A DNA stretch of 64,000 nt from Torpedo marmorata (lineage: Eukaryota), in the NCBI GenBank assembly GCA_977017645.1, contig OZ360220.1, forward strand, positions 157,108,001-157,172,000, written 5' to 3'. Shown here in pieces: positions 36,063 to 58,300 of the stretch. How positions within the stretch are numbered: the stretch's first letter is position 1; every line of letters starts with the position of its first letter. The notes under the pieces were generated by a model. That model saw only the letters and a program-made list of their open reading frames with translations, was not told the origin of the DNA and did not search any database. Both the position numbers and the translations under genes were made by a program.

Positions 36063-37176
36063 GTTAGCCCCAGAGCAAATAAATGCGAATTTATTGTCAT
36101 ATACATAAGCACATTTGTATAGATGCAGTGAAAATCTTCCTTGCTGCAGTTTCCCAGGTACATAAAACACACTGACAACAATTTTATAACGATCACGCAA
36201 AACGCTACGAAGAGAAAAAAAAGGATAATAAATGTAAAAGAAAAAGAAGAGAAACCGTAAATAATAAACATTCACAGTTGGCCGGTCGTGCAAAATATAA
36301 ATTGTATCAGTATTGCAGGCCGATCCTTTGTGGACATGGAGTAATGCTACAGTTCAGGTGATACGGGAAGGTTCAAGAGACTGATGGCTGAGAGAAAGTC
36401 AACCTGAAAATAATTGTGCATCTTTGTCTGGGCGGTTGCGCCGGGACTCTTATGGAACGATATTCACTCCTTTACATCCAATTTTCCATCTGCCGAGTTC
36501 ATTTCTTGGGTGACATGGCCCTTGAGGCAATGGTTGGAGGATCGCAATGCCGGGCATGATGGTATTGATGGAGACATTGGGGAGAGATTCTGCCTATTTT
36601 ATTCTGAACTTGGCCGAGGTATCCTGCATCCGGAGGCTTGTTAGTGCTCTCCACCTGTGAAATAATTTTGGATTCCATTTTTAATTTAACGCTTCTTTCC
36701 CCACAGTGGTAATTTGTACTAAAATATGAAGTCCGCCAGATCTTCTTCGCTCTTCTTCACAGATCGCCAGGAGCGAAGCCCAACTCAGCTGGTGATGAGT
36801 AATGAGAAACTGGAGGGACTTGGCGGGTCAGGCAGCGCCCATGGGGAGAAGTGGTCATTCAGCGTTTCTCTCCATGGATGCTGCCTGACCCTCTGAGTAC
36901 TCCAGCCATTGATAGAATCTGAGTTGTTAGCTGTCCCACTCGCCTGCGTATCTTCTTTCAGTGAGATTTCATTTTATTTTACATTTTAATCAGAGAGAAT
37001 TTAAAGTTCCAATGACTTCTAAATCTCTCTCAACCAGTGGTAAAATAAAGACCCGACAAATATTCGTTAAATTTCAGTTATAATTTAAACCGAGGTGACA
37101 GTGTCGGTAGTAAAAAACACAAATGCTGGAGAAACTCAGCAGGTCAAACGGTGTCTTTTATGTAGCAAAGGTAGAA

Positions 37177-37220
37177 ATACATAACCGACGTTTCGGGCTT
37201 GAGCCCTTCATCAAAGTATG
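37177..37220 (-). ncRNA. Minimal type I hammerhead-ribozyme-like motif (left arm)
   Basis: Minus strand reads TTGATGA-A-GGGC-TCAA-GCCC-GAAA-C-GTCG-G-TT. Minimal hammerheads in Penelope-like termini are established knowledge. Confidence 0.7.
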
Positions 37221-37405
37221 AGAAAATGCCGGCAGGCGTCCGAACAAAAGAATGAGGGGGGAAGGGGGATGGCAAAGGCAGGAGATGATAGGTGGAGAAA
37301 GGAGGGAGGGGACAGCAGCAAAGAGGGGGAGGAGGGATGGCTAGGTAGCTGGAGAAAAACAGGAAGGACAGGTGAGGGGGGAGGGGAAGGGAAGGACAAG
37401 CAGGT

Positions 37406-38074
37406 TTAGTGGAAAGCAGAAAAGTCAATGTTAATGCCATCTGGCTGGAGAGTGCCGAGGCGGAATATGAGATGTTGTTCCTCCAATTTGCGGGTAGTCT
37501 GGGTGGGATAGTACATGAGGCCATGGACAGACATGTGAGTGTGGGAGTGTGACCCGGAATTGAAATGGTTGGCTACTGGGAGGTCGCTGTTGTTGTGGAC
37601 GGAGAGGAGGTGCTCAGCAAAGCGGTCTCCCAATCTACGACCGGTCTCTCCAATGTAGAGAAAGCCACAAAGGGAGCACTGGATGCAGTAAATAAGTTCT
37701 CTGGATGTACAAGTGAAGTGTAGTTTCACTTGAAAGGCCTGTTTGGGGCCGTGGACCGTGGTGAGGGGGGAGGTGTGGGCGCAGGTGTTGCACCTCCTGC
37801 GGGCACAGGGGAAGGTGCCGGGGGTGCGATGGGTGGGGAGGGATGAGTGCATGAGTGAGTCACGGAGGGAGCGGTCCCTACGGAAGGCCAAGAGGGGAGG
37901 AGAAGGAAAAATGTGTCTGGTGGTGGGATCCTGTAGTAAGTGCCGGAAATTCCGGCGGATAATGTGTTGGATGCGGAGGCTGGTGGGGTGGTAGGTGAGG
38001 ATGAGGGGGATTCTATGTTTGTTGCATCGAGCCCCCTCGGCCCCCAGACGCAACAAACATAGAATCCCCCTCAT
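37406..38074 (-). CDS. Penelope-type GIY-YIG endonuclease ORF (222 aa from ATG; left arm; no RT domain)
   Basis: IPLILTYHP linker, CxRxxCxxC motif, LIYCIQCSLCGFLYIGETGRRLGDRFAEH...NHF...RKLEEQHLIFRLGTLQPDGIN. The frame is open; expression unknown. Confidence 0.7.
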   Translation of the reverse strand: MRGILCLLRLGAEGARCNKHRIPLILTYHPTSLRIQHIIRRNFRHLLQDPTTRHIFPSPPLLAFRRDRSLRDSLMHSSLPTHRTPGTFPCARRRCNTCAHTSPLTTVHGPKQAFQVKLHFTCTSRELIYCIQCSLCGFLYIGETGRRLGDRFAEHLLSVHNNSDLPVANHFNSGSHSHTHMSVHGLMYYPTQTTRKLEEQHLIFRLGTLQPDGINIDFSAFH

Positions 38075-38669
38075 CCTCACCTACCACCCCACCAGCCTCC
38101 GCATCCAACACATTATCCGCCTGAATTTCCGGCACTTACTACAGGATCCCACCACCAGACACATTTTTCCTTCTCCTCCCCTCTCGGCCTTCCGTAGGGA
38201 CCGCTCCCTCCGCGACTCACTCATGCACTCATCCCTCCCCACCCATCGCACCCCCGGCACCTTCCCCTGTGCCCGCAGGAGGTGCAACACCTGCGCCCAC
38301 ACCTCCCCCCTCAGCACGGTCCAGGGCCCCAAACAGGCCTTCCAAGTGAAACTACACTTCACTTGTACATCCAGAGAACTTATTTACTGCATCCAGTGCT
38401 CCCTTTGTGGCTTTCTCTACATTGGAGAGACCGGTCGTAGATTGGGAGACCACTTTGCTGAGCACCTCCTCTCCGTCTGCAACAACAGCGACCTCCCAGT
38501 AGCCAACCATTTCAATTCCGGGTCACACTCCCACACTCACATGTCTGTCCATGGCCTCATGTACTATCCCACCCAGACTACCCGCAAATTGGAGGAACAA
38601 CATCTCATTTTCCGTCTGGGCACTCTCCAGCCAGATGGCATTAACATTGACTTTTCTGCTTTCCACTAA
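38001..38669 (+). CDS. Penelope-type GIY-YIG endonuclease ORF (222 aa from ATG; right arm; conserved Arg changed to His)
   Basis: Mirror of the left-arm ORF; LGDHFAEH instead of LGDRFAEH. Expression unknown. Confidence 0.65.
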   Translation: MRGILCLLHRAPSAPRRNKHRIPLILTYHPTSLRIQHIIRLNFRHLLQDPTTRHIFPSPPLSAFRRDRSLRDSLMHSSLPTHRTPGTFPCARRRCNTCAHTSPLSTVQGPKQAFQVKLHFTCTSRELIYCIQCSLCGFLYIGETGRRLGDHFAEHLLSVCNNSDLPVANHFNSGSHSHTHMSVHGLMYYPTQTTRKLEEQHLIFRLGTLQPDGINIDFSAFH

Positions 38670-38854
38670 ACCTGCTTGTCCTTCCCTTCCCCTCCCCCCT
38701 CACCTGTCCTTCCTGTTTTTCTCCAGCTACCGAGCCATTCCTCCTCCCCCTCTTTGCTGCTGTCCCCTCCCTCCTTTCTCCACCTATCATCTCCTGCCTT
38801 TGCCATCCCCCTTCCCCCCTCACTCTTTTGTTCGGACGCCTGCCGGCATTTTCT

Positions 38855-38898
38855 CATACTTTGATGAAGGGCTCAAGCCCGAAACGTCGGTTATGTAT
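38855..38898 (+). ncRNA. Minimal type I hammerhead-ribozyme-like motif (right arm)
   Basis: ttgatga a gggc tcaa gccc gaaa c gtcg g tt at 38861-38892. C3U core variant, extra A before stem II, short stem III, imperfect stem I (atac.t / a.t.gtat). Confidence 0.7.
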
Positions 38899-39399
38899 TT
38901 CTACCTTTGCTACATAGAATACACTGTTTGACCTGCTGAGTTTCTCCAGCATTTGTGTTTTTTACTTCAACCACGGTGTCTACAGATTTTCGTGTTTTAC
39001 TTTTGACAGTGTCGGGAGGTTGGATGCGCTCCAACAGGGAGCTTATTAAGCGGTGAGTTGATGTGATGAAATTGATTGTGATCGCTCGGCCTTTTTCGTC
39101 CCAGTCTGTACTGCTGTGGTTATGAACCCGTTAGTGAACACCGCGATTTGAATGTTACGGAAGAACAGTAGATGGAGATGATTTATGAAGCGCAGCTAAA
39201 TTTGAGAAGGATCTTTCCTTACTCTTCTCGATTGGACAAATGGGTGGGGGCTGGCGGTCCATTGGAGAGCACAGGAGATTGGCTCTCCACTGTTATACCG
39301 GTGCAACACCGAGCCATCTGAGAAACTAGGAGGATTACAACAATCCAATGTGAAAAGCCAGAGCGCCACTTTCAGGGAATGGACAATCCAACATTATTA

Positions 39400-39700
39400 T
39401 GAGCAACACACGATCTGCTGGAGGAACTCAGCGGTCGAGCAGCATCAGTGGGAGTAAGAAGAATGGTGAACGTTGTGGGCAGGACTGAGAGGGTAGTGTG
39501 GAGGGGAGAGAGAGCTGGTGTTATGGGGGCAGGGTGGGAGGGGTCGGACCGGGGTTAGTGGGGGATTGGTGGAACGGTGAGAGGTGAAGGGTGGCGGAGA
39601 GTTGACTAGCAGATGCCAGATAGAGGGAGAGAGAAGCGAGAGCAGCGTAGGGTGAGGTGGAGAAAGGTGAGTCATGCAGGGAGGGGTTGGGTGACAGGTA
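39400..39700 (-). mobile_element. Old Penelope-derived 3' remnant
   Basis: ctgctggaggaactcagcggtcgagcagcatc followed by a purine-rich tract, the same architecture as the PLE 3'UTR but diverged. Confidence 0.5.
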
Positions 39701-40390
39701 GGAACACAGGCTGCCAGGTTTATTACTCCATCGAAAAATAAACTAACGGAGCCATGCACATCCCAAGCACGATTCTTACACCACAGCTGGAGTTCCTTCG
39801 TTTTAAAAAAAATTAAAGCTCCACTCTTTTAACCGGAGGGGCTTACTCCACGAATCAATTACATGAGACAAAAAAATTACCTCAACTCGATATTAACCCT
39901 CGAACACAACATCTTAAGCAAGTAGCAATCTGAACATTGTTGGATTCCTTTTGACTCTCCCCTCTCAATCAGGCGCTACAGGTTGCTAAGGGAGCAGGTA
40001 AGGAGGGTGAGCACAGCGGGGTGTCCTCATTGATCCGCGGAACCGTGGAAGGAGAGTTGGCAAATGTTCAAACGAGCTCGTTTCCTTTCTGCGCTTCAGT
40101 GCCTCGAAGTTGGAAAGCTGTTTCTTCGAGTCCTAACGCAGATTATCGCAACGCAACATCAGTCATTTCTCTCTCCAACGTTCAATACGACGTCCTCTGT
40201 TATCAGTTAAAGAACTGAACTTGGACATTGAACTTTGAGATTGAATTTTGTGGACTGTGTTTTTTGGACTGACTTACTTGACTGACTGACCTGGGGTTTT
40301 GGGAATTTTTCCTTTTTGAATATTGGGCACAGACTGTAATGGTCTGGGTATTTTTTTTACATACACACTGTTTATAAATATATGATATCC

Positions 40391-40501
40391 CTACTTTGAT
40401 GAAGGGCTCAAGCCCGAAACGTCGGTTATGTATTTCTACCTTTGCTACATAAAATACACTGTTTGACCTGCTGAGTTTCTCCAGCATTTGTGTTTTTTAT
40501 T
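40391..40501 (+). mobile_element. 111-bp hammerhead-only Penelope-derived insertion with 10-bp TSD
   Basis: Nearly identical to 38858-38965 and flanked by TATGATATCC at 40381-40390 and 40502-40511. Confidence 0.88.
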
Positions 40502-40749
40502 TATGATATCCGTATATTTGCCATAGATACTTATAAGGGGTTAATTGTGTTAAGACATTATATTATTAATAGTCATTAATAAATATAGAGTTAAAATTTA
40601 ACCCTTTTGAATTGCATCTTCTGTTGCTGCTGGTTTGAGTTGTAACAAAGGTAAAAAAACACAAAATGCTGGAGGAACTCAGCCGGTCCTTTCAGCGTCT
40701 ATAGGAGACAAAGGTATCACTAGAAGTGTGTATCAAGGAGGGCCCACCA

Positions 40750-41760
40750 CTCCTGACAACATCCTTGTGAAAATTTCCTCCACCCACTCGATTTTAGTCA
40801 CACCCTCACTGTAACATGGTGACCAGAATTGCACACAATAATCCAGGTGCGGTCTAACCAACGCCCCATACAGCTTTAATGTGACATCACAACTCATTGT
40901 CATTGCCCTGTGCGACAACGGTTAGCATGCTAAAAGCCTCCTTCACCACCTTGCTTCCCCAGGTCACCACTTTCAGGGAATTATGTAATTGTATACCCAG
41001 ATGTCTGTTCTACAACACTCCCCGGGTCCCTAACATTCACTGTGTATGTCTTGCCGTGGTTTAACTTCCAAAATTCATAACTTCATAAATGTTTGAGTGA
41101 AATTCCATCTTCCATTCCCTGCTCTACTTTCCTAATGGATCTAGATACTGTTGTAGCCTCAGACAACCGTCTTCACTGCCCACCACACTATCAATTTTGC
41201 TGTCATTCGCAAATGTACTTTCCACCTACATTCTCAACAAAATAGTTAATGGAAATGACAAACATCAGGGACTCAACATTGATCCCTACAACACGCCACT
41301 GCTCACAAGCCTCCAATCTGCATGAGCTCTGAATCCTTTCACCAAGCTAATTTTGTATCCAATTAACTAGCTCACAGTGGATCCCAGGTAACCTTCTGAA
41401 CCTGACTTCCACGTGGGGTCTTCTCAAAAAACCTAGCTAAAGTTCACGTAGACTAAGTCTACCACCCGCCTTCGTCAATCCTCTAGATTACCTCATCAAA
41501 AATTCAATAAAATTCGTGAGACACGATTTCCTCTGTACAAAGCCCCTGTCTCTTAGTAACCTTTCCACCGCTAGTGCTAGGTTCACTGGCTTGTCCTTGC
41601 AACTCTTCTTAAATAAGTACACAACATTAGCCACCTTCCAGTCTTCTGGTTCTTCAACCGAGGCCGAATAAGATACAAAAATCTCTGGTAGGGTCCCGGT
41701 AATTGTTCCACAACGTCCAAGAATACACGGTTAAAGATTTATCCACAATTATGCGACCCA
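40750..41760 (-). mobile_element. CR1 LINE fragment (old, RT region)
   Basis: ORF piece LKLYGALVRPHLDYCVQFWSPCY plus degenerate upstream RT-like sequence (acagggatc/gtcattcgcaaat, i.e. FAND-like, on the minus strand). Confidence 0.75.
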
Positions 41761-41819
41761 AGACTCTTTCCTAATATCCATATGTTTCAGGGCATCGCTG
41801 TTAAATTTATTTCAATTTT

Positions 41820-42066
41820 TTTAAAAATTTAGACATACAGCACGGTAACAGGCCATTTCAGCCCACGAGTCCGTGCCGCCCAATTGCAACCAATTAATGT
41901 ACAACTCCCGGTACGTTTCGAACGGTGGGAGGAAACCGGAGCTCCCGGGGAAACCCCACGCAGACATGGGGAGAACGTCCAAACTCCTTACACACAGTGC
42001 GGGCTTCGAACCCGGTCCTGATCGCTGGCGCTGTAACAGCGTTGCGTTAACTGCTACGCCACCCAT
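41820..42066 (-). mobile_element. V-SINE-like tRNA-derived SINE
   Basis: Minus strand: gtggcgtagcagttaacgcaacgctgttacagcgcca...gggttcgaagcc (A/B-box-like), core aggagtttggacgttctccccatgtctgcgtggggtttccccgg, and an A-rich tail. Confidence 0.8.
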
Positions 42067-42074
42067 GTGTTCTC

Positions 42075-42270
42075 TTCCCTGATTTCTGTTTTTCTTTCAC
42101 TTTCCAGAACCTGCAGTTTTATTTCTTTTCCATAATCTTCTACCCATCTCCAGTTCAGAAGAGGGGTCTCTGACCCAAAACGCTCACTGGTTTCTCTTTC
42201 CACAGATGTTGCCTGCCTGGCTGATTGAATTCTTCCTATTCTTGTTTCAGGTTCCAGCATCTACAGTTTT
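42075..42270 (+). mobile_element. Old Penelope-derived terminal remnant with decayed hammerhead motif
   Basis: cagaagaggggtctctgacccaaaacg...cacagatgttgcctgcctggctga has the hammerhead-plus-tail layout with mutated core boxes. Confidence 0.5.
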
Positions 42271-42754
42271 AATTTTTTTCATGCGATTAATTAAACCAGG
42301 CAGCATTTGGGCAGTGGGGCATAGTATTCTGTGCAGAAGTTAAATCAGCATACACTTCAGAGCTCGGCCCCAGCATTAGGGAAATGCATACCTAGTACAA
42401 ATAAAACAGGAAACAGACTTCTAAGGGCTGTTGTATGATTTTGTGTACTCCCGAATAGTGTTGACAACTGTTTCTGCAGCCTTGCTGTCATCTGGTTAGA
42501 TTTGCTGACAGTACAATGAACGGTGTGATATTACTGAAGAGCATAATAGAGAAATATTTTGTAGGGTTGTTGATAGTTACAAAACCAGCCAAGTTCTGTA
42601 TGCAGCGGGTCCTCACCAGACCAGCCTTCACACACACAAGGTGAAGGATAACATTGATTTCTGCCGTATCCAACATTTCACGTACACTTCAAGGCTTCGT
42701 GTGAAGTGTTTTGAGACTATTCGAGTCCCATATAAATGCAAGTATTCTTTAGAG

Positions 42755-44506
42755 CAGCCATTCTCAACGGGGGCCCTACGACGCCCCTGGGGGCCACGGC
42801 ACATTTAAGTAAAAGCCTTGTTTTCTTTTCACCTCATTTAACATAAATATTTTTAATGGTTTTTTTAATGTAGTCGGTAGTGGAGATGTCAGAACTTCAT
42901 TCAAAAGGGTGAACCCTCGCAAGGCGTCAGGCCCTGTCGGCGTACCTGGCAGGGTATTGAAAATCTGCGCCAACCAACTAGCCAAAATGTTCACGGACAT
43001 TTTCAACCTCTCATTGTGGCAGTCAGAGGTTCCCACCTGCTTCAAAAGGGCATCAATCATCCCAGTACCCAAGAAGAGTAGTGTGAGCTGCCTCAACGAC
43101 TACCGCCCAGTGGCACTAACTTCTATGGTTATGAAATGCTTTGAGAGGCTGGTCATGGCCAGAATTAACACGTACCAAAGCAAAGATCTGGACCCACTGC
43201 AATTTTCCTATCGTCACAATCGCTCCACAGCAGATGCAATATCGTTTGCTCTCCACTCAGCTCTGGATCACCTCGAAAACAGCAATTCATACATACGGCT
43301 GCTCTTCATCGACTACAGCTCGGCCTTCAATACCATTATTCCCTCAGTGCTGGTCAAGATGCTACAAACTTTAGGCCTCTGTACCCCCCTCTGCAACTGG
43401 ATCCTTGACTTTCTCATCAGAAGACCACAGTCAGTACGAATTGGAAACAATGTCTCCTCCTCATTCATCATCAACACAGGCGCACCCCAAGGATGCGTGC
43501 TTAGCCCACTACTCTACTCGTTACACACCCATGATTGTGTGGCCAGGCACAATTCCAATGTCATCTACAAGTTTGCCGATGACACCGCAGTTGTTGGCAG
43601 AATCACAAACGGCAATGAGGAAGCGTACAGGAGGGAGATAGATCAGCTTGTTGAATGGTGTAATGACAACTACCTTGCACTCAACGTCAGCAAAACCAAG
43701 GAGATGATTGTGGACTTCAGGAGGAAGCCAGTCCTCATCGAGGACTCAGTAGTGGAGAGGGTCAAGAACTTCAAATTCCTGGGTGTCAACATCCCTGAGG
43801 ATCTGTCCTGGAGCATCCACGTTGATGCAATTACAAAGAAGGCTCGTCAGCGGCTATACTTTGTGAGGTGTCTGAGGAGACTCGGTATGTCACCGAAAAC
43901 TCTCGTAAACTTCTACAGGTGTACCATGGAGAGCATTCTGGCTGGTTGCATCACTGCCTAGTATGGAAGCACCAACTCTCAGGACAAGAATAAACTCCAG
44001 AGGGTTGTTAACTCAGCCTGTGACATCAAAGGCACCAAACTTCACTCCATCGAGGACATCAACACGAGGTGGTGTCTTAAAAAAGCAACCTCTCTCCTCA
44101 AAGACCCCCACCACCCAGGCCATGCCCTCTTCACTCTGCTACCATTGGGAAAAAGGTACAGGAGCCTAAAGACGAGCACTCAACGGCACAAGGACAGCTT
44201 CTTCCCCGCTGCCATCAGATTCCTGAATAATCAATGAACCAAAGACATTGCCTTACTTTTCGTGCATTATTATTTATATATATTTTTATAGTAATGTTGT
44301 AAGATGGTAATACTATGAATGTTAATTGCACTATGATGCTGCCACAAAACACCGAATTTCATGACTTGTTCAGGACAATAAATTCTGATTCTGATTCTGA
44401 GAAGTACGGAAGAAACTAAAACTTGACTGCTTCACAGGGAATGGACCCATAAACGTTGAGCAGAGTCCTGAGGGGCCATAGCCAAAAAAAAGTTTAGGTA
44501 TGGCTG
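42755..44506. mobile_element. hAT/Charlie-like MITE split by a LINE insertion
   Basis: Imperfect TIRs CAGCCATTCTCAAC at 42755 and gtttaggtatggctg ending at 44506. 8-bp TSD ctttagag (42747-42754) / cttcagag (44507-44514), 7 of 8 matching. Confidence 0.75.
42880..44400 (+). mobile_element. Rex1/Babar-clade non-LTR retrotransposon, 5'-truncated; RT ORF 42909-43961 ended by a premature stop
   Basis: RT motifs [50 protein letters not shown]>TAG at 43959-43961. 3' tail aataa(attctg)3. Confidence 0.92.
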
Positions 44507-47500
44507 CTTCAGAGCTCCAACTATTGAGGAAGGAAATCTGCCGCACAATTACTTTTGTGTTATTATGGATAAGGATGGAATAGGAAGGTTAGGGTATATG
44601 GGAGTAGAGGGGTTAGTGAGGATAGGACTAGAGGATTTGGGTAGACAGGAGTAGAGGAGCTGTGGTCATAGGAAGGGGTTGGAGGGGTGAGTGTAGATCG
44701 AGGGGTACGGCAGATGGGGTTAGAAGGGTTTGGGTAGATATGTTTTAGGGTAGACAGTAGAGGGGTTAGGGTAGACAGGAGTAGAGGGGTTAGGATAGAC
44801 AGGAGTAGAGGGGTTAGGGAAGACAGGAGTAGAGGGGTTAGGTTAGACAGTAGAGGGGTCAGGGTAGACAGTAGAGGTGTTAGAGTAGACAGGATTAGAG
44901 GGGTTAGGGTAGAAGGGAGTAGAGGGGTTAGGGTATACAGTAGAGGGGTTAGGGTAGACAGGAGTAGAGGGGTAGGGTAGACAGGAGTAGAGGGGCAAGG
45001 GTAGACAGCAGAGGGGTTAGGGTAGACAGGTGTAGAGGGGTTAGGGTAGACAGTAGAGGGGATAGGATGGACAGTAGAGGGGTTAGGGTAGACAGTAGAG
45101 GGGTTATGGTAGACAGGAGTAGAGGGGTTAGGGTAGACAGTAGAGGGGTTATGGTAGACAGGAGCAGAGGGGTTAGGGTAGACAGGAGTAGAGGGGTTAG
45201 GGTAGACAGGAGCAGAGGGATAGGGTAGACAGGAGTAGAGGGGTTAGGGTAGACATTAGAGGGGTTAGGGTAGACAGGAGTAGAGGGGATAGGGTCGACA
45301 GTAGAAGGGTTAGGGTAGACAGTAGAGGGATTAGGGTAGATAGGAGTAGAGGGGTTAGGGTAGACAGTAGAGGGGATAAGATAGACAGTAGAGGGGTTAG
45401 GTTAGACAGTAGAGGGGTTAGGGTAGACAGGAGACGAGGGGTTAGGGAAGAGGAGTAGAGGGGTTGGGGAAGACAGGAATAGAAGTGTTAGGGTACACAG
45501 GAGCAGAAGGGTGAGGGTAGACAGGAATAGAAGGGTTAGGGTAGACAGGAGCAGAGGGTTAGGGTAGACAGGAGTAGAGGGGTTAGGGTAGACATTAGAG
45601 GGGTTAGGGTAGACAGGGGTAGAGGGGATAGGGTCGACAGGATTAGAGGGGTTAGGGTAGACAGGAATAGAAGGGTTAGGGTACACAGAAGTAGAAGGGT
45701 TAGGGTAGACAGGAGCAGATGGGTGAGGGTAGACAGGAATAGAAGGGTTAGGGTAGACAGGAGCAGAGGGATAGGGTAGACAGGAGTAGAGGGGTTAGGG
45801 TAGACATTAGAAGGGTTAGGGTAGACAGGTGTAGAGGGGATAGAGTCGACAGGAGTAGAGGGGTTAGGGTAGACATTAGAGGGGTTAGGGTAGACAGGAG
45901 TAGAGGGGTTAGGGTAGACAGTAGAGGGGTTAGGGTAGACAGTAGAGGGGTTAGGGTAGACAGGAGTAGAGGGGTTAGGGTAGACAGTAGAGGGGTTAGG
46001 GTAGACTGGATTAGAGGTGTTAGGGTAGAAGGGAGTGAGGGGTTACGGTAGATAGTAGAGGGGTTAGGGTAGACAGGAGTAGAGGGGTTAGGGTAGACAG
46101 GATTAGAGGGGTTAGGGTAGAAGGGAGTAGAGGGGTTACGGTAGATAGTAGAGGGGTTCGGGTAGACAGGAGTAGAGGGGTTACGGTAGACAGTAGAGAG
46201 GTTAGGGTAGACAGGAGTAGAGGGGTAGGGTAGACAGGAGTAGCGGGGCAGGGGTAGATAGCAGAGGGGTTAGGGTAGACAGGAATAGAGGGGTTAGGGT
46301 AGACAGGAGAAGAGGGGTTAGGGTAGACAGTAGAGGGGTTATGGTAGACAGGAGTAGAGGGGTTAGGGTAGACAGTAGAGGGGTTATGGTAGACAGGAGT
46401 GGAGGGGTTAGGGTAGACAGTAGAGGGGATAGGATAGACAGTAGAGGGGTTAGGGTAGTCAGTAGAGGGGTTAGGGTAGACAGGAGAAGAGGGGTTAGGG
46501 AAGAGGAGTAGAGGGGTTGGGGTAGACAGGAATAGAAGGGTTAGGGTAGACAGGAGCAGAGGGTTAGGGTAGACAGGAGTAGAGGGGTTAGGGTAGACAT
46601 TAGAGGGGTTAGGGTAGACAGGAGTAGAGGGGTTATGGTAGACAGTAGAGGGGTTAGGGTAGACAGGAGTAGAGGGGTAGGGTAGACAGGAGTAGCGGGG
46701 CAGGGGTAGACAGCAGAGGGGTTTGGGTAGACAGGAGTAGCGGGGCAGGGGTAGACAGCAGAGGGGTTTGGGTAGACAGGAGTAGAGGGGTTAGGGTAGA
46801 CAGGTGAAGAGGGGTTAGGGTAGACAGTAGAGGGGTTAGGGTAGACAGGAGTAGAGGGGTTAGGGAAGACAGGAGTAGAGAGGTCAGGGTAGGCAGTAGA
46901 GGTATTAGGATAGACAGGACTAGAGGGGTTAGGGTAGAAGGGAGTAGAGGGGTTACAGTAGATAGTAGAGGGGTTAGGGTAGACAGGAGTAGAGGGGTTA
47001 CGGTAGACAGTAGAGAGGTTAGGGTAGACAGGAGTAGAGGGGTAGGGTAGACAGGATTAGCGGGGCAGGAGTAGGCAGCAGAGGGGTTATGGTAGACAGG
47101 AGTAGAGGGGTTAGGGTAGACAGGAGAAGAGGGGTTAGGGTAGACAGTAGAGGGGTTTGGGTAGATAGGAGTAGAGGGGTTAGGGTAGACAGTAGAGGGG
47201 TTATGGTAGACAGGAGTAGAGGGGTTAGGGTAGACAGGAATAGAAGGGTTAGGGTAGACAGGAGCAGAGGGTTAGGGTAGACAGGAGTAGAGGGGTTAGG
47301 GTAGACATTAGAGGGGTTAGGGTAGACAGGAGTAGAGGGGTTACGGTAGACAGTAGAGGGGTTAGGATAGACAGTAGAAGGGTTAGGGTAGACAGTCGAG
47401 GGGTTAGGGTAGACAGGAGTGGAGGGGTAGGATAGACAGGAGAAGGGGGTTCGGGTAGACAGTAGAGGAATTAGGGTAGACAGGAGTAGAGGAGTTAGGG

Positions 47501-50500
47501 TAGACAGCAGAGGGGTTAGGGTAGACAGTAGAGGAGTTAGGGTGGACAGGATTAGAGGGATTAGGGTAGACAGTAGAGGGGTTAGGGTAGACAGGAGTAG
47601 AGGGGTTAAGGTAGAAAGTAGAGGAGTTAGGGTAGACAGTAGAGGGGTTAGGGTAGACAGGAGTAGAGAAGTTAGGGTAGACAGGAGTAGAGGGGATAGG
47701 GTTGACAGTAGAGGGGCTATGCTAGATAGTAGCGGGGTTAGGGTCGACAGTAGAGGGGTTCGGGTGACAGGAGTAGAGGCTTTTGGGTAGACAGAGTAGA
47801 GGGGTTGGGGTAGACAGTAGAGGGGTTAGGGTAGACAGGAGTGGAGGGGTTAGGGTAGTCAATAGAGGGGTTAGGGTACACAGGAGTAGAAGGGTTACGG
47901 TAGACAGTAGAGGGGTTAGGGTAGACAGGAGTATAGGGGTTAGGGTACAGGAGTAGAGGGGTAGGATAGACAGGAGTGGAGGTGTTAAGATAGAGAGGAG
48001 TAGAGGGGTTAGAGTAGACAGGAGTAGAGGGGTTAGGGTAGACAGTAGAGGGGTTAGGGTAGACAGTCGAGGGGTTAGGGTAGACAGTAGAGGGGTTAGG
48101 GTAGACAGTAGAGGGGATAGGTTAGACAGGAGTAGAGGGGTTAGGGTATGCAAGAGAAGAGGGGTTAGGGGAGATAGTAGAGGGGTTAGGGTAGACAGTA
48201 GAGGGGTTTGGGTAGACAGTAGGGGTGTTAGAGTAGACAGTAGAGGGGTTAGAGTAGAAAGTAGTTGAGGAGTTAGGTTAGCCAATTGAGGGGTTAGGGT
48301 AGACAGTAGAGGGATTAGAGTAGACAGTAGAGGGGTTAGGGTAGCCAGTAGAGGGGTTAGGGTAGACAGGAGTGGAGGGGTTAAGGTAGAAAGTAGAGGA
48401 GTTAGGGTGGACAGGATTAGAGGGATTAGGGTAGACAGTAGAGGGTTAGGGTAGACAGTAGAGGGGTTAGGGTAGACAGGAGTAGAGGAGTTAGGGTAGA
48501 CAGGAGTAGAGGGGATAGGGTTGACAGTAGAGGGGATTGGGTAGACAGTAGCAGGGTTAGGGTCGACAGTAGGGGATTTAGGGTAGACAACAGTAGAGGG
48601 GTTAGGGTAGACATTAGAGGGGTTAGGGTAGACAGGTGTAGAGGGGATAGGGTGGACAGGAGTAGAGGGGTTAGGGTTGACAGGAGTAGAGGGGTAAGGG
48701 TAGTCAGGAGTAGAGGGGTAGGGTAGACAGGAGTAAGGGGTTAGGGTAGACATCAGAGGGGTTAGGGTAGACAGGAGTAGAGGGGATAGGGTAGACAGGA
48801 GTAGAGGGGTTAGGGTAGACAGGAGTAGAGGGGTTAGGGTAGACAGGAGTAGAGGGGTTAGGTAGACAGTAGAGGGGATAGGGTAGACAGGAATAGTGGG
48901 GTTAGGGTAGACAGTAGAGGGGTTAGGGTAGACAGGAGTAGAGGGTTAGGGTAGACAGTGGTCAAGGGGTTAGGGTAGACAGGAGTAGAAGGATTAGAGT
49001 AGACAGTAGAGGGGTAGGGTAGAGAGGAGTAGGGGGTTAGGGTAGACAAGAGTGGACGGGCTTGGGTAGAGAGGAGTAGAGGGGTAAGGGTAGTCAGGAG
49101 TAGAGGGGTAGGGTAGACAGGAGTAGGGGGTTAGGGTAGACAGTAGATGGGTTAGGGTAGACTAGAGGGGTTAGGATAGGCAGGAGTAGAGGGGTTAGGG
49201 TAGACAGGAGTAGAGGGGTAGGGTAGACAGTAGATGGGTTAGGGTAGACTAGAGGGGTTAGGATAGGCAGGAGTAGAGTGGTTAGGGTAGACAGGAGTAG
49301 AGGGTTTAGGGTAGATAGTAGAGGGGTTAGGGTAGACAGTTGAGGGGTTAGGGTAGACAGGAGTAGAGGGGTTAGGGTAGAAAGGAGTAGAGGGGTTAGG
49401 GTAGACAGGAGTAGAAGGGTGAGGGTAGTCAGTAGAGGGGTTAGGGTAGACAGTAGAGGGGTTAGGGTAGACAGGAGTAGAGGGGTTAGGAGAGACAGGA
49501 GTAGAGGGGTTAGGGTAGGCAGGAGTAGAGGGGTTAGGAGAGACAGGAGTAGAGGGGTTAGGGTAGACAGGAGTAGAGGGGTTAGGGGAGACAGGAGTAG
49601 AGGGGTTAGGGGAGACAGTTCTGGGTTAGGATTGACAGGAGTAGATGGGCTAGGGTATACAGGAATAGAAGGGTTAGGGTAGACAGTAGAGGGGTTAGGG
49701 TAGACAGTAGAGGAGTTAGGGTAGACAGTAGAGGGGTTAGGGTAGACAGGAGTAGAGAGGTTAGGATAGACAGGAGTAGAGGTGTTAGGGTAGACAGGAG
49801 GAGAGGGGATTGGGTAGACAGTAGGGTGGTTAGGGTAGACAGTACAGGGATTAGGGTAGACAGGAATAGAGGGTTAAGATAGACAGGAGTAGCGGGGTTA
49901 GGGTAGAAAGGATTAGTGGGATTAGGGTACAGAGGAGTAGAGGGGTTTGGTAGACAGGAATAGTGGGGTTAGGGTAAACAGGAGTAGAGGGGTTAGGGTA
50001 GACATTAGAGGTGTTAGGGTAGACAATAGAGGTGTTAGGGTAGACAGGAGTGGAGGTGTTAGGGTAGACAATAGAGGTGTTTGGGTAGACAGGAGTGGAG
50101 GTGTTAGGGTAGACAGTAGAGGTGTTAGGGTAGACAGGAGTGGAGGTGTTAGGGTAGACAGTAGAGGTGTTAGGGTAGATAGGAGTAGAGGTGTTAGGGT
50201 AGACAGTAGAGGTGTTAGGGTAGACAGGAGTAGAGGTGTTTGGGTAGACAGTGGAGGTGGTAGGGTAGACAGGAGTAGAGGTGTTCGGGTAGACAGGAGT
50301 AGAGGTGTTAGGGTAGACAGGAGCAGAGGTGTTAGGGTAGACAGGAGTAGAGGTGTTAAGGTAGAAAGTAGAGGGGTTAGGCTCGACAGAAGTAGAGGTG
50401 TTAGGGCAAAAAGGATTAGTGGGGTTAGCGTAGACAGTTGAGGTGTTGGGTAGACAGGAGTGGAGGTGTTAGGCTAGACAGGAGTAGAGGGGTTAGGGTT

Positions 50501-52386
50501 GACAGGAGTAGAGGGGTTTGTGTGGACAGTAGAGTGTTTATGGTATACAGGAGTAGAGGGGTTAGCGTAGACAGTAGAGGGGTTAGGGTAGACAGTAGAG
50601 GGGTTTGGGTTGACAGGAGTAGAGGAGTTAGGGTAGACAGTAGAGGGGTTAGGGTAGACAGTAGTGGAGTTAGGTTAGTCAGTAGAGGGGTTAGGGTAGA
50701 CAGTAGAGGGGTTTGGGTAGACAGTAGAGGGGTTAGGGTAGACAGGAGAGGGGTTAGGGTAGATAGTAGAGAGGTTAGGGTAGGCAGGAGTAGAGGGGTT
50801 AGGATAGACAGGAGTAGAGGGCTTAGGATAGACAGGAGAAGAGGGGTTAAGGTAGACAGTAGAAGGGTTAGGGTAGACATTAGAGGGGTAAGGGTACACA
50901 GTAGATGGATTAGGGTAGACAGAAGTAGAGGGATTACGGTAGGCAGTAGAGGGGTTAGGATAGACAGTAGAAGGGTTAGGGTAGACAGTAGAAGGTTTAG
51001 GGTAGACAGTAGAGGGGTTAGGGTAGACAGGAGTAGAGGGGTTAAGGTAGAAAGTAGAGGAGTTAGGGTGGACAGGATTAGAGGGATTAGGGTAGACAGT
51101 AGAGGGGTTAGGGTAGACAGGAGTAGAGGGGTTAAGGTAGAAAGTAGAGGGGTTAGGGTCGACAGAAGTAGAGGTGTTTGGGCAGAAAAGAGTAGAGAGG
51201 TTAGGGTAGACAGTTGAGGGGTTAGGGTAGACAGGAGTAGAGGGGTTAGTGTGGACAGTAGAGTGTTTATGGTAGACAGGAGTAGAGGGGTTAGGGTAGA
51301 CAGTAGAGGGGTTAGCGGAGACAGTAGTGTGATTATGGTCGACAGGGGTAGAGAGGTTAGGAGAGACAGGAGTAGAAGTGTTAGGGGAGACAGTAATAGA
51401 GGGTTAGGATAGACAGAAGTAGACGGGTTAAGTTGGACAGGAGTAGAGGGGTTAGGATAGACAGGAGTAGAGGGGTTAGGATAGACAGGAGTAGAGGGGT
51501 TAGGGTAGACAGTAGAGGGGTTCAGGTAGACAGTAGAGAGGTTAGGGCACACAGGTGTAGAGGGGTTAGGATAGACAGGAGTAGAGGGGTTAGGGTAAGC
51601 AGTAGATGGATTAGGGTAGACAGGAGTCGAGGGGTTTGGGTAGAGAGTAGAGGGGTTACGGTAGACAGTAGAGGGATTAGGCTGGACAGGAGTAGAGGCG
51701 TTAGGGTAGACAGGAGTAGAGGGGTTAGTGTAGACAACAGTAGAGGGGTTCGTGTAGAGTGTAGGGGGTTAGGGTAGACAGTAGAGGGATTAGAGTAGAC
51801 AGGAGTAGAGGCGTTTGTGCAGACAGTAGACGGGTTAGGGTATACATTAGTAGAGTGGTTAGGGTAGACACTGGATGGGTTAGGGTAGACAGTAGAGGGG
51901 TTTGGGTAGACAGTAGAGGGGTTAGGGTAGATAGTAGAGGGGTTAGGATAGACAGGAATAGAGGGGTTAGGATAGACAGGAGTAGAGGGCTTAGGATAGA
52001 CAGGAGAAGAGGGGTGAAGGTAGACAGTAGAAGGGTTAGGGTAGACATTAGAGGGGTAAGGGTACACAGTAGATGGATTAGGGTAGATTGGAGTAGAGGG
52101 GTTATGGTAGGCAGTAGAGGAGTTAGGATAGACAGTAGAAGGGTTAGGGTAGACAGTAGAGGGGTTAGGGTAGACAGTAGAGGGGTTAGGGTACACAGGA
52201 GTAGAAGGGTTAGGGTAGACAGGAGATGGATTGGGGTAGACAGGAGTAGATGTGTTAGGATTAAACAGTAGAGTTGTTAGGATAGACAGGAGTGGAGGTG
52301 TTCGGGTAGACATTAGAGGGGTTAGGGTAGACAGGAGTAGAGGGGTTAGGGTAGACAGAAAAGGGGATAGGGTGGACAGCAGACAG

Positions 52387-54196
52387 AAAAAATATAAATG
52401 CTGGAGAAATTCAGCAGGTCAAACAGTGTCATTTATGTAGCAAAGGTAGAAATACATAACCGACGTTTCGGGCTTGAGCCCTTTATCAAAGTATGAGAAA
52501 ATGCTTCAGACGTCCGAACAAAAGAGTGAGGGGGGAAGGGCGGGTGGTGGCAAAAGCAGGAGATGATAGGTGGAGAAAGGAGGGAGGGGACAGCAGCAAA
52601 GAGGGGGAGGAGGGATGGCTGGGTGGGTGAAAAAAAAACAGGAAGGAAAGCTGAGGGGGGAGGGGAAGGAAACGACTAGCAGGTTTAGTGGAAAGCAAAA
52701 AAGTCAATGTTAATGCCATCTGGCTGGAGAGAGCCGAGACGGAAAATGAGATGTTGTTCCTCCAATTTGCGGGTAGTCTGGGTGGGATAGTACATAAGGC
52801 CATGGACAGACATGTGAGTGTGGGAGTGTGACCCGGAATTGAAATGGTTGGCTACTGGGAGGTCGCTGTTGTTGCGGACGGAGAGGAGGTGCTCAGCGAA
52901 GCGATCTCCCAATCTACGACCGGTCTCTCCGATGTGGAGAAAGCCACAAAGGGAGCACCGGATGCAGTAAATAAGTTCTCTGGATGTACAAGTGAAGTGT
53001 AGTTTCACTTGGAAGGCCTGTTTATGGCCCCGGACCGTGGTGAGGGGGGAGGTGTGGGCGAAGGTTTTGCACCTCCTGCGGGCACAGGGGAAGGTGCCGG
53101 GGGTGCGATTGGTGGGGAGGGATGAGTGCACGATGGAATCGCGGAGGGAGCGGTCCCTACGGAATGCCGAGAGGGGAGGAGAAGGAAAAATGTGTCTGGT
53201 GGTGGGATCCTGTAGTAAGTGGCGGAAATTCCGGCGGATAATGTGTTGGATGCGGAGGCTGGTGGGGTGGTAGGTGAGGATGAGGGGGATTCTATGATTG
53301 TTGCGTCTGGGCGTAGTGGGGTCCAGGGCGGCCCCCTCTCCCCCCAGACGCAACCCTGGCCCCCTCTGCACCCAGATGCAACCCTGGCCCCTCTGCCCCC
53401 AGACGCAACAAACATAGAATCCCCCTCATCCTCACCTACCACCCCACCAGCCTTCCCCTGTGCCCGCAGGAGGTGCAACACCTGCGCCCACACCTCCCCC
53501 CTCACCACAGTCCGGGGCCCCAAAGAAGCCTTCCAGGTGAAACTACACTTCACTTGTACATCCAGAGAACTTATTTACTGCATCCGGTGCTCCCTTTGTG
53601 GCTTTCTCTACATCGGAGAGACCAGTCGTAGATTGGGAGATCACTTTACTGAGCATCTCCTGTCTGTCCGCAACAACAGTGACCTCCCAGTAGCCAACCA
53701 TTTCAATTCCGGGTCACACTCCCACACTCACATGTCTGTCCATGGCCTATTGTACTCTCCCACCCAGACTACCCGCAAATTGGAGGAACAACATCTCATT
53801 TTCCGTCTAGGCACTCTCCAGCCAGATGGCATTAACATTGACTTTTCTGCTTTCCACTAAAGCTGCTTGTCGTTTCCTTCCCCTCCCCCCTCACCTGTCC
53901 TTCCTGTTTTTTTCCACCCACCCAGCCATCCCTCCTCCCCCTCTTTGCTGCTGTCCCCTCCCTCCTTTCTCTACCTATCATCTCCTGCCTTTGCCACCCC
54001 CCCTTCCCCCCTCACTCATTTGTTCGAACGCCTGCCGGCATTTTCTCATATTTTGATGAAGGGCTCAAGCCCGAAACGCCGGTTATGTATTTCTAGCTTT
54101 GCTACATAAAAGACACTGTTTGACCTGCTGAGTTTCTCCAGCATTTGTGTTTTTTTCTTCAACCACGGTGTCTACAGATTTACGTGTTTTACTTTC
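52387..54196. mobile_element. Second fold-back Penelope-like element, inside the satellite
   Basis: The left arm (minus strand, frame 52685-53371) and right arm (plus strand, ends 53860) both encode GIY-YIG. Three ~28-bp tandem repeats sit at the centre, the right arm has a ~164-bp deletion, and hammerhead motifs lie at 52458-52489 (minus) and 54053-54084 (plus). Confidence 0.92.
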
Positions 54197-54498
54197 AAGA
54201 CAGTAGAGCGGTGAGGGTAGACAGGAGTAGAGGGATTAGTGTAGACAGGAGTAGAGGGGATAGCGTAGACAGTAGAGGGGTTATGGTAGACAGGAGAAGA
54301 GGTGTTAGCGTAGACAGTAGAGGGTTTAGGGTTGACAGGAGTAGAGGGATTTGGGTAGACAGTAGAGCGGTCAGGGTAGACAGGAGTAGAGGGGTTAGGG
54401 TAGACAGGAGTAGAGGGGTTTGGGTAGACAGTAGAGGGGTTAGGGTAGACAGGAGTAGAGGATTTAGGGTAGACAGTGGAGGGGTTAAGGTAGACAGT

Positions 54499-55331
54499 AG
54501 AATCAGAATCAGAATTTATTGTCATGAACAAGTCACGAAATTTGGTGTTTTGCGGCAGCATCATAGTGCAATTAACATTCATATTAACCATCTAACGACA
54601 TTACTATAAAAATTATAAACAATAGTGCACAAAAAGTAAGGCAGTGTCATTGGTTCATTGATTATTCAGGAATCTGATGGCAGCGGGGAAGAAGCTGTCC
54701 TTGTGCCGTTGAGTGCTCGTCTCTAGGCTCCTGTACCTTTTTCCTGATGGAAGCAGAGTGAAGAGGGCATGGCCTGGGTGGTGGGGGTCTTTGAGGATAG
54801 AGGCTGCTTTTTTAAGACACCGCCTCATGTAGATGTCCTCGATGGAGTGAAGTTTGGTGCCTGTGATGTCACAGGCCGAGTTAACAACCCTCTGGAGTTT
54901 ACTCTTGTCCTGGGAGTTGGCGCCTCCATACCAGGCAGTGATGCAACCAGCCAGAATGCTCTCCACGGTGCACCTGTAGAAGTTTACGAGAGTCTTTGGT
55001 GACATACCGAGTCTCCGCAGAAACCTCACAAAGTATAGCCGCTGACGAGCCTTCTTTGTGATTGCATCAATGTGGATGCTCCAGGACAGATCCTCGGAGA
55101 TGTTGACACCCAGGAATTTGAAGTTCTTGACCCTCTCCACAACTGAGCCCTCGATGAGGAGTGGGTCGTGTTCCCCTGACTTCCTCCTGAAGTCCACAAT
55201 CATCTCCTTGGTTTTGCTGACGTTGAGCTCAAGGTTGTTGCCATTACACCATTCAACGAGCTGATCTATCTACCTCCTGTACGCTTCCTCATTGCCGTTT
55301 GTGATTCTGCCAACAACTGTGGTGTCATCGG
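54499..55331 (-). mobile_element. Rex1/Babar LINE 3' fragment inserted in the satellite
   Basis: Highly similar to 43578-44400. [22 protein letters not shown]...FFPAAIRFLNNQ; (attctg)n tail; truncated at the DD motif. Confidence 0.92.
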
Positions 55332-58300
55332 TTTGGGTAGACAGTAGAGGGGTTAGGGTAGACAGGAGTAGAGGAGTTAGGGTAGGCAGTAGAGGGGTTT
55401 GGGTAGACAGTAGAGGGGTTAGGGTAGACAGGAGTAGAGGAGTTAGGGTAGACAGTAGAGGGGATAGGGTAGACAGGAGTAGCAGGGTTTGGGTCAACAG
55501 TAGAGGGCTTTGGTGGACAGTAGAGGGGTTAGGGTAGACAGTAGAGGGGTTTGGGTAGACAGTAGAGGGGTTAGGGTAGACAGTAGGGGTGTTAGGGTAG
55601 ACAGGAGTAGAGGGGTTAAGGTAGACAGTAGAGGGGTTATGGAAGACAGGAGTAGAGGGGTTAAGGTATACTCTAGATTGGTTTGGGTGGACAGTAGAGG
55701 GGTTTGGGTAGATAGTAGAGGGGTTAGGGTAGACAGTAGATGGATTTGGGTGGACAGGAGTATAGGGGTTAGGATAGACAGGAGTAAAGGGGTTAGGGTA
55801 GACACTAGAGGGGTTAGGGTAGACAGTAGAGGGGTTAGGATAGACAGTACTGGGATTAGGGTAGACAGGATTAGAGGGGTTAGGGAAGACAGTAGAGGGA
55901 TTCGGGACAACAGGAGCAGAGAGGTTAGGATAGACAGGAGTCGAGGTGTTAGTGTTGACTGGAGTAGAGGGGTACGGGTAGACAGTAGAGGGGTTAGGGT
56001 ATACAGTAGAGGGATTAGGGTAGACAGGAGTAGTGGGGTTCGGGTAGACAGTAGACGGGTTAGGGTAGACATTCGTAGAGGGGTTAGGGTAGACACTAGA
56101 GGAGTTAGGGTAGACAGTAGAGGTGTTTGGTTAGACAGTAGAGGGGTTGGTGTAGACATTAGTGGGATTAGGGTAGACAGGAGTAGAGGGGTTAGGATAG
56201 ACATGAATAGAGGGGTTAGGGTAGACAGGAGTAGAGGGGTTTGGGTAGACAGTAGAGGTTTCAGGGTAGACAGTCGAGGCATTAGGGTAGACAGGAGTAG
56301 AGGTGTTAGGGTAGACAGTAGAGGGTTAGGATAGACAGGAGTAGAGGGGTTAGGGTAGACAGTGGTCGAGGGGTTAGGGTAGACAGGAGTAGAAGGATTA
56401 GGATAGACAGGTTTAGATTGGTTAGGGTAGACAGGAGTAGAGAGGTTAGGATAGACAGCAGTTGGGGTGTTAGGGTAGACAATAGATTGGTTAGGGTAGA
56501 CAGTACTGGAATTAGGGTAGACAGGATTAGAGGGATTAGGGTAGACAGTAGAGGGATTAGGGACAACAGAAGCAGAGAGGTTAGGATAGACAGGAGTCGA
56601 GGTGTTAGTGTAGACTGGAGTAGAGGGGTACGGGTAGATAGTAGAGGGGTTAGGGTAGACAGTAGAGGGATTAGGGTAGACAGGAGTAGTGGGGTTCGGG
56701 TAGACAGTAGACGGGTTAGGGTAGACATTTGTAGAGGGGTTAGGGTAGACACTAGAGGGGTTAGTGTAGACAGTAGAGGGGTTTGGTTAGACAGTAGAGG
56801 GGTTGGTGTAGACATTAGTGGGATTAGGGTAGACAGGAGTAGAGGGGTTAGGATAGACATGAATAGAGGGGTTAGGGTAGACAGGAGTAGAGGGGTTCGG
56901 CTAGACAGTAGAGGTTTCAGTGTAGACAGTAGAGGCATTAGGGTAGACAGGAGTAGAGGTGTTAGGGTAAACAGTAGAGGGTTAGGATAGACAGGAGTAG
57001 AGGGGTTAGGGTAGACAGTGGTCGAGGGGTTAGGGTAGACAGGAGTAGAAGGATTAGGGTAGACAGGTTTAGATTGGTTAGGGTAGACAGGAGAGGGATT
57101 AGGGTAGATAGGAGTCGAGGGGTTAGGGTAGACAGGAGAGGGATTGGGTGGACAGGAGTAGATGGGTTAGCATAGATAGGAGAGGGATTAGGTTAGACAG
57201 GAGTAGAGGGGTTAGGGTAGACACTAGAGGTTTAGGGTAGACAGTAGTGGGGTTAGGATGGACAGTAGAGGGATTAGGGTCGACAGGAGTAGAGAGGTTT
57301 GGATAGACAGCAGTAGGGGTGTTGGGGTAGACAGTCGAGTGATTAGGGTAGACAGTACTGGGATTAGGGTAGACAGGATTAGAGGGGTTAGGGTAGACAG
57401 TAGAGGGATTCGGGTCGACAGGAGCAGAGAGGTTATGATAGACAGGAGTTGAAGTTTTAGTGTGGACCGGAGTAGAGGGGTACGGATAGACAGTAGAGGG
57501 GTTAGGGTAGACGGTAGAGGGATTAGGGTAGACAGCAGTAGTGGGGTTCGGGTAGACAGTAGACGGGTTAGGGTAGACATTCGTAGAGGGGTTAGGGTAG
57601 ACACTAGAGGGGTTAGGGTAGACAGTAGAGGTGTTTGGTTAGACAGTAGAGGGGTTAGGGTAGACAATAGTGGGATTAGGGTAGACAGGAGTAGAGGGGT
57701 TAGGATAGACATGAGTAGAGGGGTTAGGGTAGACAGGAGTAGAGAGGTTTGGGTAGACAGTAGAGGGTTCAGGGAAGACAGTAGAGGCATTAGGGTTGAC
57801 AGGAGTAGAGGTGTTAGGGTAGACAGTAGATGGCTAGGTTAGATAGGAGTAGAGGGGTAAGGGTAGACAAGATTAGAGTGGTTAGGGTAGACAGGAGAGG
57901 GATTAGGGTAGACAGGAGTAGAGGGGTTAGGATAGACAGGAGTAAAGGGGTTCGGGTAGACAGTAGAGGGGTTAGGGTAGGCAGTGGAGAGGTAAGGGTA
58001 ATCAGGAGTGGAGGGGTTCGGGTGGACTGTAGAGGGGTTAGAGTAGACAGTAGAGGGATTAGGGTAGACAGGGGTAGAGGGGTTTGGGTACACAGTACAC
58101 GGGTTAGGGTAGACAGTAGAGGGGTTTGGGTAGACAGTACAGTGGTTAGGGTAGACAGTAGCGGGATTAGGGTAGACAGTAGAGGGGTTAGGGTCGACAG
58201 GAGTAGAGAGGTTAGGATAGACAGGAGTAAAGGGGTTAGGGTAGACACTAGAGGGGTTAGGGTAGACAGTAGAGGGGTTAGGATAGACAGTACTGGGATT

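Follow-up and report, generated by a model that had tools for sequence, protein, structure and literature searches.

In Penelope-like elements (PLEs), a 5'-truncated copy is frequently adjoined by an inverted one, and the tail has been attributed to resolution by the endonuclease, according to the available part of PMC8557442. That part also describes non-autonomous PLEs and a CX2-5CxxC motif between reverse transcriptase (RT) and endonuclease, by which the Neptune/Nematis linker is defined. In Adineta vaga, the elements Pen2/Pen3 carry inverted head-to-head pseudo long terminal repeats (pLTRs) with a target site duplication (TSD) and an optional 31-bp tail; in one group of families the pLTRs are of similar length (181-218 bp), and the palindromes at the junctions were read as products of self-priming (PMC3846280). 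The origin of the inverted repeats and of the one-sided tail is still debated between self-priming and endonuclease resolution, without direct proof for either (PMC3846280 and the available part of PMC8557442). Here, we analyzed a stretch of 64,000 nt from Torpedo marmorata (GCA_977017645.1, contig OZ360220.1, positions 157,108,001 to 157,172,000; hereafter the window), in which an initial annotation had pointed out two palindromic insertions, copy 1 (37108-39003) and copy 2 (52387-~54195), that fold back at almost the same position of one element. Judged by their sequence, both are 5'-truncated head-to-head insertions of a Neptune-type PLE, and we consider it somewhat probable that twin target-primed reverse transcription gave rise to each palindrome as a single insertion. 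A set of head-to-head insertions whose arms are not nested hints at such twin priming in PLEs.

For the Anolis Poseidon element PAc, the available text of PMC11167929 describes a protein that cuts and extends both target strands in vitro, two RT start sites on the RNA that bound the tail, and a predicted dimer. Pairs of hammerheads 100-700 bp apart on opposite strands are described in the accessible part of PMC4209133. Hammerhead-bearing PLE 3' ends can be mobilized without an RT of their own, as in non-LTR retrozymes and non-autonomous PLE derivatives (bioRxiv 10.64898/2026.07.22.740005 and PMC8557442, in the portions available). The palindromic architecture of copies 1 and 2 is therefore already known for PLEs: both PMC3846280 and the available part of PMC8557442 record a TSD, a tail at one end and a neighbouring inverted copy with a truncated 5' end, and self-priming had been proposed in the former.

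The arms of the two copies encode 207-214 aa that comprise the RT-endonuclease linker, with a CX4CX2C motif, and a GIY-YIG domain. The linker motif (CARRRCNTC) lies at residue 80 and its cysteines are invariant in homologue alignment A1, while a GIY-YIG-type motif is present and Pfam PF01541 was matched in one of two arms (E = 0.0056, below the gathering score). Thirty-seven longer homologues were found, many of them with RT and GIY-YIG, and the closest named proteins come from rays and sharks (Mobula, Hypanus, Rhincodon, Stegostoma, Chiloscyllium) at 57-67% identity. The protein sets held no copies of this exact family, the best identities being 67% among longer proteins, 63% among those of near length and 73% over short stretches of shorter ones; as no protein exceeded 73%, the family is absent from the searched set. 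A tblastn search of the window with seven relatives matched linker and endonuclease only and detected no RT of this family. The clade name Neptune is tentative and is based on the linker motif together with reports of Neptune from vertebrates. Aligned with the homologues, the palindrome centre falls where the RT thumb region ends, immediately before the conserved linker.

Ahead of the tail lies a hammerhead-like motif of the minimal type I (38861-38890, forward strand), and the motif scan also returned it at 37214 (reverse strand), 40396, 54053 and 63627 (reverse strand). Its stem II folds, and its core combines U3 with G8, which is non-canonical and corresponds to neither the C3-G8 nor the U3-A8 variant in the accessible part of PMC4209133; the motif is a putative ribozyme. 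An Rfam scan of 36500-41000 gave no hammerhead match at E ≤ 1; its 24 matches (23 microRNA hairpin models and one internal ribosome entry site model) were all below the gathering score.

Copy 1 is bracketed by the 12-bp direct repeat TGACAGTGTCGG at 37096-37107 and 39004-39015 (both on the forward strand), and because this one TSD encloses the entire unit, copy 1 is a single insertion event. Its inverted repeat consists of two arms of 931 nt each (37098-38028 and 38047-38977), 97% complementary and separated by an 18-nt gap. The left, inverted arm (37108-38028, reverse strand) holds the linker and the end of the GIY-YIG open reading frame (ORF), the 3' untranslated region (UTR) and the hammerhead-like motif; it is tailless, terminates at the tail-start site and retains an open frame of 207 aa. 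The coding part of the right arm (38031-38669, forward strand) specifies 212 aa, namely the RT-endonuclease linker with its CX4CX2C zinc-finger-like motif and the GIY-YIG endonuclease, without RT, and only this arm carries the 3' tail of 37 nt (38967-39003, forward strand). At the head-to-head junction (38026-38049, read from the sequence and the fold), two substitutions create a 4-bp mini-hairpin. The spacing of the junction matches that predicted from a natural 4-nt inverted repeat (CTGG/CCAG) inside the motif on which the palindrome is centred, and may point to joining by microhomology.

Copy 2 is embedded in a satellite. Its left, inverted arm (52387-53329, reverse strand) is tailless and has an open frame of 214 aa; its centre (53330-53409, forward strand) is made of 2.9 tandem copies of a 28-nt unit of the motif, each with substitutions of its own; and its right arm (53330-54195, forward strand) has a 164-nt internal deletion near 53452 and a tail of ~38 nt (~54158-54195) which the left arm lacks. 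Thus, in both copies the tail is a 37-40-nt extension confined to the right arm. The triplication at the centre suggests repeated restarts at one point. No usable TSD was found around copy 2, where the best candidate is a 6-mer that recurs in the surrounding satellite. The tip of its left arm (53311-53323) bears four substitutions within ~12 nt, well above the ~3% rate of the arm; the tip of copy 1 and the junction of a related locus, L010, likewise carry changes that perfect a small hairpin. An assembly fold-back artefact was rejected for both copies, given the divergence of their arms (2.15% for copy 1, 5.79% for copy 2), the TSD and the one-sided tail.

The copies show the hallmarks of endonuclease-containing (EN+) PLE insertions, that is, a 5'-truncated copy with an adjoining inverted one, a one-sided tail of 30-40 bp and a TSD (12 bp for copy 1; 10 bp for a fragment of the same family at 40391). 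With EN+ Neptune PLEs they share the C-terminal GIY-YIG, the CX2-5CxxC linker, the 5' truncation and the adjoining inverted copy, as well as the tail, the TSD and the 3' hammerhead-like motif (PMC3846280 and the available part of PMC8557442); they differ in lacking an RT, in consisting of just two arms of ~930 nt, and in that two copies have a common centre. Pen2/Pen3 likewise form head-to-head inverted repeats with a TSD and an optional tail (PMC3846280), but are of the Poseidon type, with pLTRs of ~200 bp usually separated by an intervening body, whereas the arms in the window measure ~930 nt and include the endonuclease frame. The tail bounded by two RT start sites and the hammerhead near it recur in PAc, which belongs to another clade, was studied only in vitro, and is presented in the main text of PMC11167929, as far as available, without inverted repeats. 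Non-LTR retrozymes are non-coding head-to-tail tandems of hammerheads (available part of bioRxiv 10.64898/2026.07.22.740005), a definition outside which the window copies fall with their head-to-head arms and endonuclease frames of 207-214 aa.

Both palindromes are real and centred at one 29-nt motif. Counted from its first C, the right and left arms start at positions 6 and 22 in copy 1 and at 5 and 0 in copy 2, the inner units of the copy 2 right arm at positions 1-2, so that all four arm starts fall within 22 nt and the tail-bearing arms are 1-5 nt apart. Site patterns were compared between the four arms over 743 ungapped columns, of which 10 grouped the arms by locus, one by side and none crosswise, with 3 multi-state sites and 53 singletons; 10 of the 11 informative sites thus pair arms of one locus (P = 1.3e-4 for at least 10 of 11). 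This supports two separate events, each with arms from one template lineage. The private variants on which this had first been argued mark the locus as a pattern, but the CIQC/CIRC site is one of three by-locus sites of the CpG type, which could recur; seven are non-CpG, one adjoins an indel, and the single by-side site is again CpG-type. Divergence between loci amounts to 4.98-5.52%, no more than that between the two arms of copy 2, and together with the within-copy values suggests that the copies differ ~2.7-fold in age and derive from slightly different templates. The arms of copy 2 have accumulated 19 and 21 private changes. It had been proposed that pairing of arms by locus would identify a fold-back made de novo; the arms do pair in this way, but a palindromic source copied twice from its sense arm would give the same pattern, so that a de novo and an inherited centre are not separated by it. 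The tips of the two copies differ in detail, which fits a remaking of the centre at every insertion.

A scan of the genome_contigs collection yielded 16 related loci, 11 of which form one young related family, while L001, L005, L011, L015 and L016 belong to other families and were excluded. No 5' end can be read from L002, L004 and L007 (full length or contig edge), and L003 was counted among the nine 5' ends although it may be an artefact, as its inverted repeat runs 686 nt into the flank at 100% identity and both its arms are tailless. L003:1-3260 begins with another perfect palindrome, a possible assembly fold-back. Eight head-to-head insertions have readable ends (copies 1 and 2, 18206-18339 of the window, L003, L006, L008a, L010 and L013), and in six of them the two arms differ in their ends, one reaching the tail end and the other stopping at the tail start, the exceptions being L010, with a 3'-broken arm, and L003. 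The 3' ends of the related family are bimodal (~2083-2089 vs. 2134-2150).

Neither arm contains the other in three of the five insertions with a clear TSD. The insertion at 18206-18339, from a related PLE family, has an 11-bp TSD (18195-18205 and 18340-18350), an inverted arm that runs from the hammerhead stem to the tail start, and a forward arm of tail only, with no overlap between the two. L006 (TSD of 13 bp) combines, in L007 coordinates, an arm of 2113-2150 with one ending at 2085, and L008a (TSD of 17 bp) an arm of 1988-2142 with one of 1768-2088. The junctions overlap by 5-7 nt in L003 and L013, and that of L008a carries a reiterated short motif like the triplication in copy 2, so that a reiterated motif may be a general joining signature. 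All of L001-L016 are animal-type PLE copies, one of them nearly full length, that sit in bacterial assemblies (13 of the 16 in a single one) and likely represent host contamination. L005:1-3232 and L011:1-1140 are 99.6% identical, and in both an RT segment in inverted orientation adjoins an endonuclease segment in forward orientation; L011 lacks ~2.1 kb relative to L005, and the two may be alleles or may reflect an inverted structure that was transmitted as a unit.

L1 inversions reportedly arise by twin priming (Ostertag and Kazazian are said to have proposed this in 2001), with both target strands priming complementary DNA (cDNA) on the element RNA and microhomology joining the products. The site to which the second primer anneals within L1 is reported to vary, and the inverted and forward pieces come from non-overlapping parts of one RNA inside one TSD. 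By this definition, the non-overlapping layout is found in 18206-18339 and L006 and not in copies 1 and 2; moreover, the second start is here fixed at the tail boundary, and the arms can overlap by 930 nt. Folding back can only duplicate what the copied strand itself contains, so that L006, L008a and 18206-18339 need two primed cDNAs. In the reading that we favour, each target nick would prime its own antisense cDNA, one from each RT start site, and the two cDNAs would anneal at their 3' ends by short homology and copy each other into a head-to-head repeat. If the first cDNA stopped at the second start site, the arms would abut without overlap (18206-18339), while overlapping arms as in copies 1 and 2 would result if both cDNAs were extended further, either with strand displacement on a single RNA or on two separate ones. 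Twin priming could thus be extended to copies 1 and 2, provided that both cDNAs reached the same template end. The single TSD around copy 1, the arm ends at tail start vs. tail end and the by-locus arms speak in its favour, as do the junctions with short microhomologies and reiterated motifs.

Several points weigh against twin priming. The arms of copies 1 and 2 are themselves almost nested and can be explained by a fold-back just as well, and the discriminating non-nested cases come from other families, two of them distant relatives with ~47% protein identity. L003, in which neither arm has a tail, appears to be an artefact. The both-strand biochemistry comes from another clade and is not connected to inverted repeats in the available text of PMC11167929, and the tail is ascribed to endonuclease resolution in that of PMC8557442. 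Our literature searches, which left most subscription papers uncovered, found no proposal of a twin-priming model for PLEs. Non-nested, TSD-flanked head-to-head insertions provide a simple genomic test of twin priming, and an in vitro PLE system could test it directly; we regard the evidence from the non-nested arms as the more useful by-product of this analysis.

The initial annotation had each palindrome folded separately from its own template, and while the events are indeed separate, the folding is probably wrong in view of the three non-nested, TSD-flanked insertions. In such self-priming, a single cDNA would stop, fold and copy itself back, and the endonuclease would later trim one end to leave a one-sided tail. 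The near-perfect hairpins with tiny loops of copies 1 and 2, the pairing of arms by locus, the nested arms and short junction homologies of L010 and L013, and the natural 4-nt inverted repeat that predicts the junction spacing in copy 1 are all compatible with it. However, 4-bp inverted repeats comparable to CTGG/CCAG begin at 42 of 638 positions, and self-priming by itself leaves unexplained why the inverted arms end where the tailless insertion at 40391-40501 ends. Above all, it cannot yield L006, L008a and 18206-18339, in which each arm has sequence absent from the other, and we therefore regard it as a rather unlikely alternative to twin priming.

The position of the centre is a separate question. 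If, as in twin priming, both RTs run to the 5' limit of the template, equal centres mean equal template limits. The most likely reading of the shared centre, though we put it at slightly below even, is that it reflects the end of a template passed down from a source copy which was truncated or palindromic. A source truncated or folded at the motif would impose a common template end on both copies, and a palindromic source would pass on its centre while both arms were recopied from one arm. On the other side, only two of the three independent insertions of the family share the site, neither a source copy nor upstream sequence was seen, and the ends of relatives are dispersed. A fixed RNA 5' end or a truncated non-autonomous lineage would also be conceivable causes. 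A fixed site has weak support, and the claim of one, resting on two copies, is a fair lead.

A chance coincidence of two 5' ends, dispersed as in other PLE families and independent of how the arms were built, is a serious contender for the shared centre, if not one to which we would give even odds. The third insertion (40391-40501, forward strand; 111 nt, tailless, non-palindromic, 98% identical to copy 1, with a 10-bp TSD at 40381-40390 and 40502-40511) has its 5' end just before the hammerhead-like core, ~800 nt downstream of the centre of copies 1 and 2. The nine readable 5' ends of the related family are dispersed over positions 1342-2392 of L002, with only 1 of 36 pairs within 30 nt. Under a uniform null, two ends fall within 6, 20 or 30 nt of each other with P = 0.013, 0.042 or 0.062 for a span of 950 nt and 0.004, 0.013 or 0.020 for a span of 3 kb, and for any pair of three insertions P is 0.012-0.18, depending on span and tolerance. 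The pair was, moreover, chosen after the fact. Against chance stand the tail-bearing arms, which start 1-5 nt apart (none of the 36 comparison pairs lies within 6 nt, and P per pair is 0.004-0.013), the near-symmetry of both copies and the three restarts of copy 2 at about the same point.

Head-to-head junctions were also sought in proteins, as ORFs that cross them. This read-through test covered 273 of 298 proteins, with 48 short matches left out, and 15 proteins reached a score of at least 16, whereas the highest value among 40 shuffles was 12.6. P0296 and P0280 were set aside, being internal and marginal, and the 13 junctions kept spread over residues ~386-640 of P0009, with close pairs among them (536/536 and 602/605), a point in favour of chance. 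Three of the 13 lie within ~15 residues of the window's site (~544-550 of P0009); such positions were taken from where BLAST alignments to P0009 begin, which makes them approximate, and they are biased towards proteins covering the query. The linker is not a general hot spot, and other families cannot refute a family-specific boundary.

A stall or self-priming site programmed in the sequence, at which a cDNA G-quadruplex or an RNA structure would halt RT on full-length transcripts, had been suggested at first and is an improbable cause of the shared centre. The triple restart in copy 2 would suit it, as would the G-runs on the cDNA strand at the motif (G4Hunter 1.3-1.4) and a weak local hairpin at the left tip of copy 2 (z = -1.7 to -2.3). 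Yet the G-quadruplex score is unremarkable, with 14-17% of the 25-nt windows in the arms equal to or above it and values of up to 2.3 in the 3' UTR, which the RT passed, and close to the tip the fold of a single arm is no more stable than that of shuffled sequences (z = -0.4). Reiteration also occurs at the unrelated L008a junction, the junctions of relatives are dispersed, and the sequence upstream of the site is absent from the copies.

Template inheritance and twin priming could be combined in a self-perpetuating palindromic PLE sub-family, whose daughters would inherit the centre and gain two fresh, identical arms; we regard this as an unlikely extension. A palindromic source would be transcribed, the dimeric RT-endonuclease of an autonomous partner would prime both nicks at the sites that bound the tail, the sense arm would be copied twice, and the two cDNAs would anneal across the old tip. 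The triple 28-nt unit of copy 2 would then reflect repeated re-copying at the template boundary by a telomerase-related RT. If true, one mechanism would account for the inverted orientation of pLTRs, for the tail being one-sided and for pLTR lengths that are fixed within a family. A centre fixed genome-wide would be the mark of a template boundary or of a palindromic lineage that propagates itself, and would steadily supply the host genome with ~930-bp hairpins; otherwise the locus is ordinary PLE debris.

Copying of the whole palindrome as a non-autonomous unit, with arms later homogenized by gene conversion, would give all copies one centre and agrees with the one-sided tail common to both, but is very improbable, as the tip sequences differ, the private changes in the arms of copy 2 indicate that conversion is not ongoing, and the sole by-side site is CpG-type. 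An RT-less family maintained for an expressed endonuclease and ribozyme is hardly credible, since the open frames of 207-214 aa in three arms are expected anyway in young copies, the arms start without a start codon, the first Met of copy 1 is not kept in the left arm of copy 2, two of four by-locus coding sites are non-synonymous, and the hammerhead core is non-canonical.

The satellite around copy 2 is large, G-rich and strand-asymmetric (44565-52383, 54198-54500 and 55330-63524), with units of 21-24 nt that include the hexamer TTAGGG and a higher period of 45 nt. Copy 2 is undergoing duplication together with it, as an 11,138-bp repeat of the array. This repeat holds a duplicate of the copy 2 left arm (63525-64000, reverse strand), which differs from it by 3 mismatches in 480 nt (91.5% identity over ~1.57 kb including flank) and was rejected as a further independent insertion because of this near-identity and the common flank. 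GACAGT occurs within a few bases 3' of both copies (39004-39010 and 54196-54203), a possible target preference with n = 2; the TSD of the 40391 fragment differs from this context. Two pieces of a non-LTR RT element, which we take to be Rex1/L2-like from its motifs, lie at 42880-44400 (forward strand) and 54500-55330 (reverse strand), 92% identical, in opposite orientation and one of them inside the satellite. A small, old head-to-head palindrome at 36810-36905, built from PLE-like 3' ends of another family, was left out of the count of head-to-head ends because its ends and TSD are unreadable. Short PLE-like 3'-end fragments of other families occur at 34915-35010, 39416-39442, 40654-40700 and 42080-42280, the last possibly with a tail on either side of a hammerhead-like part. 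Finally, 35096-35468 and 710-944 are imperfect palindromic elements with 70-76% arm identity, shaped like miniature inverted-repeat transposable elements and unrelated to the PLE arms.

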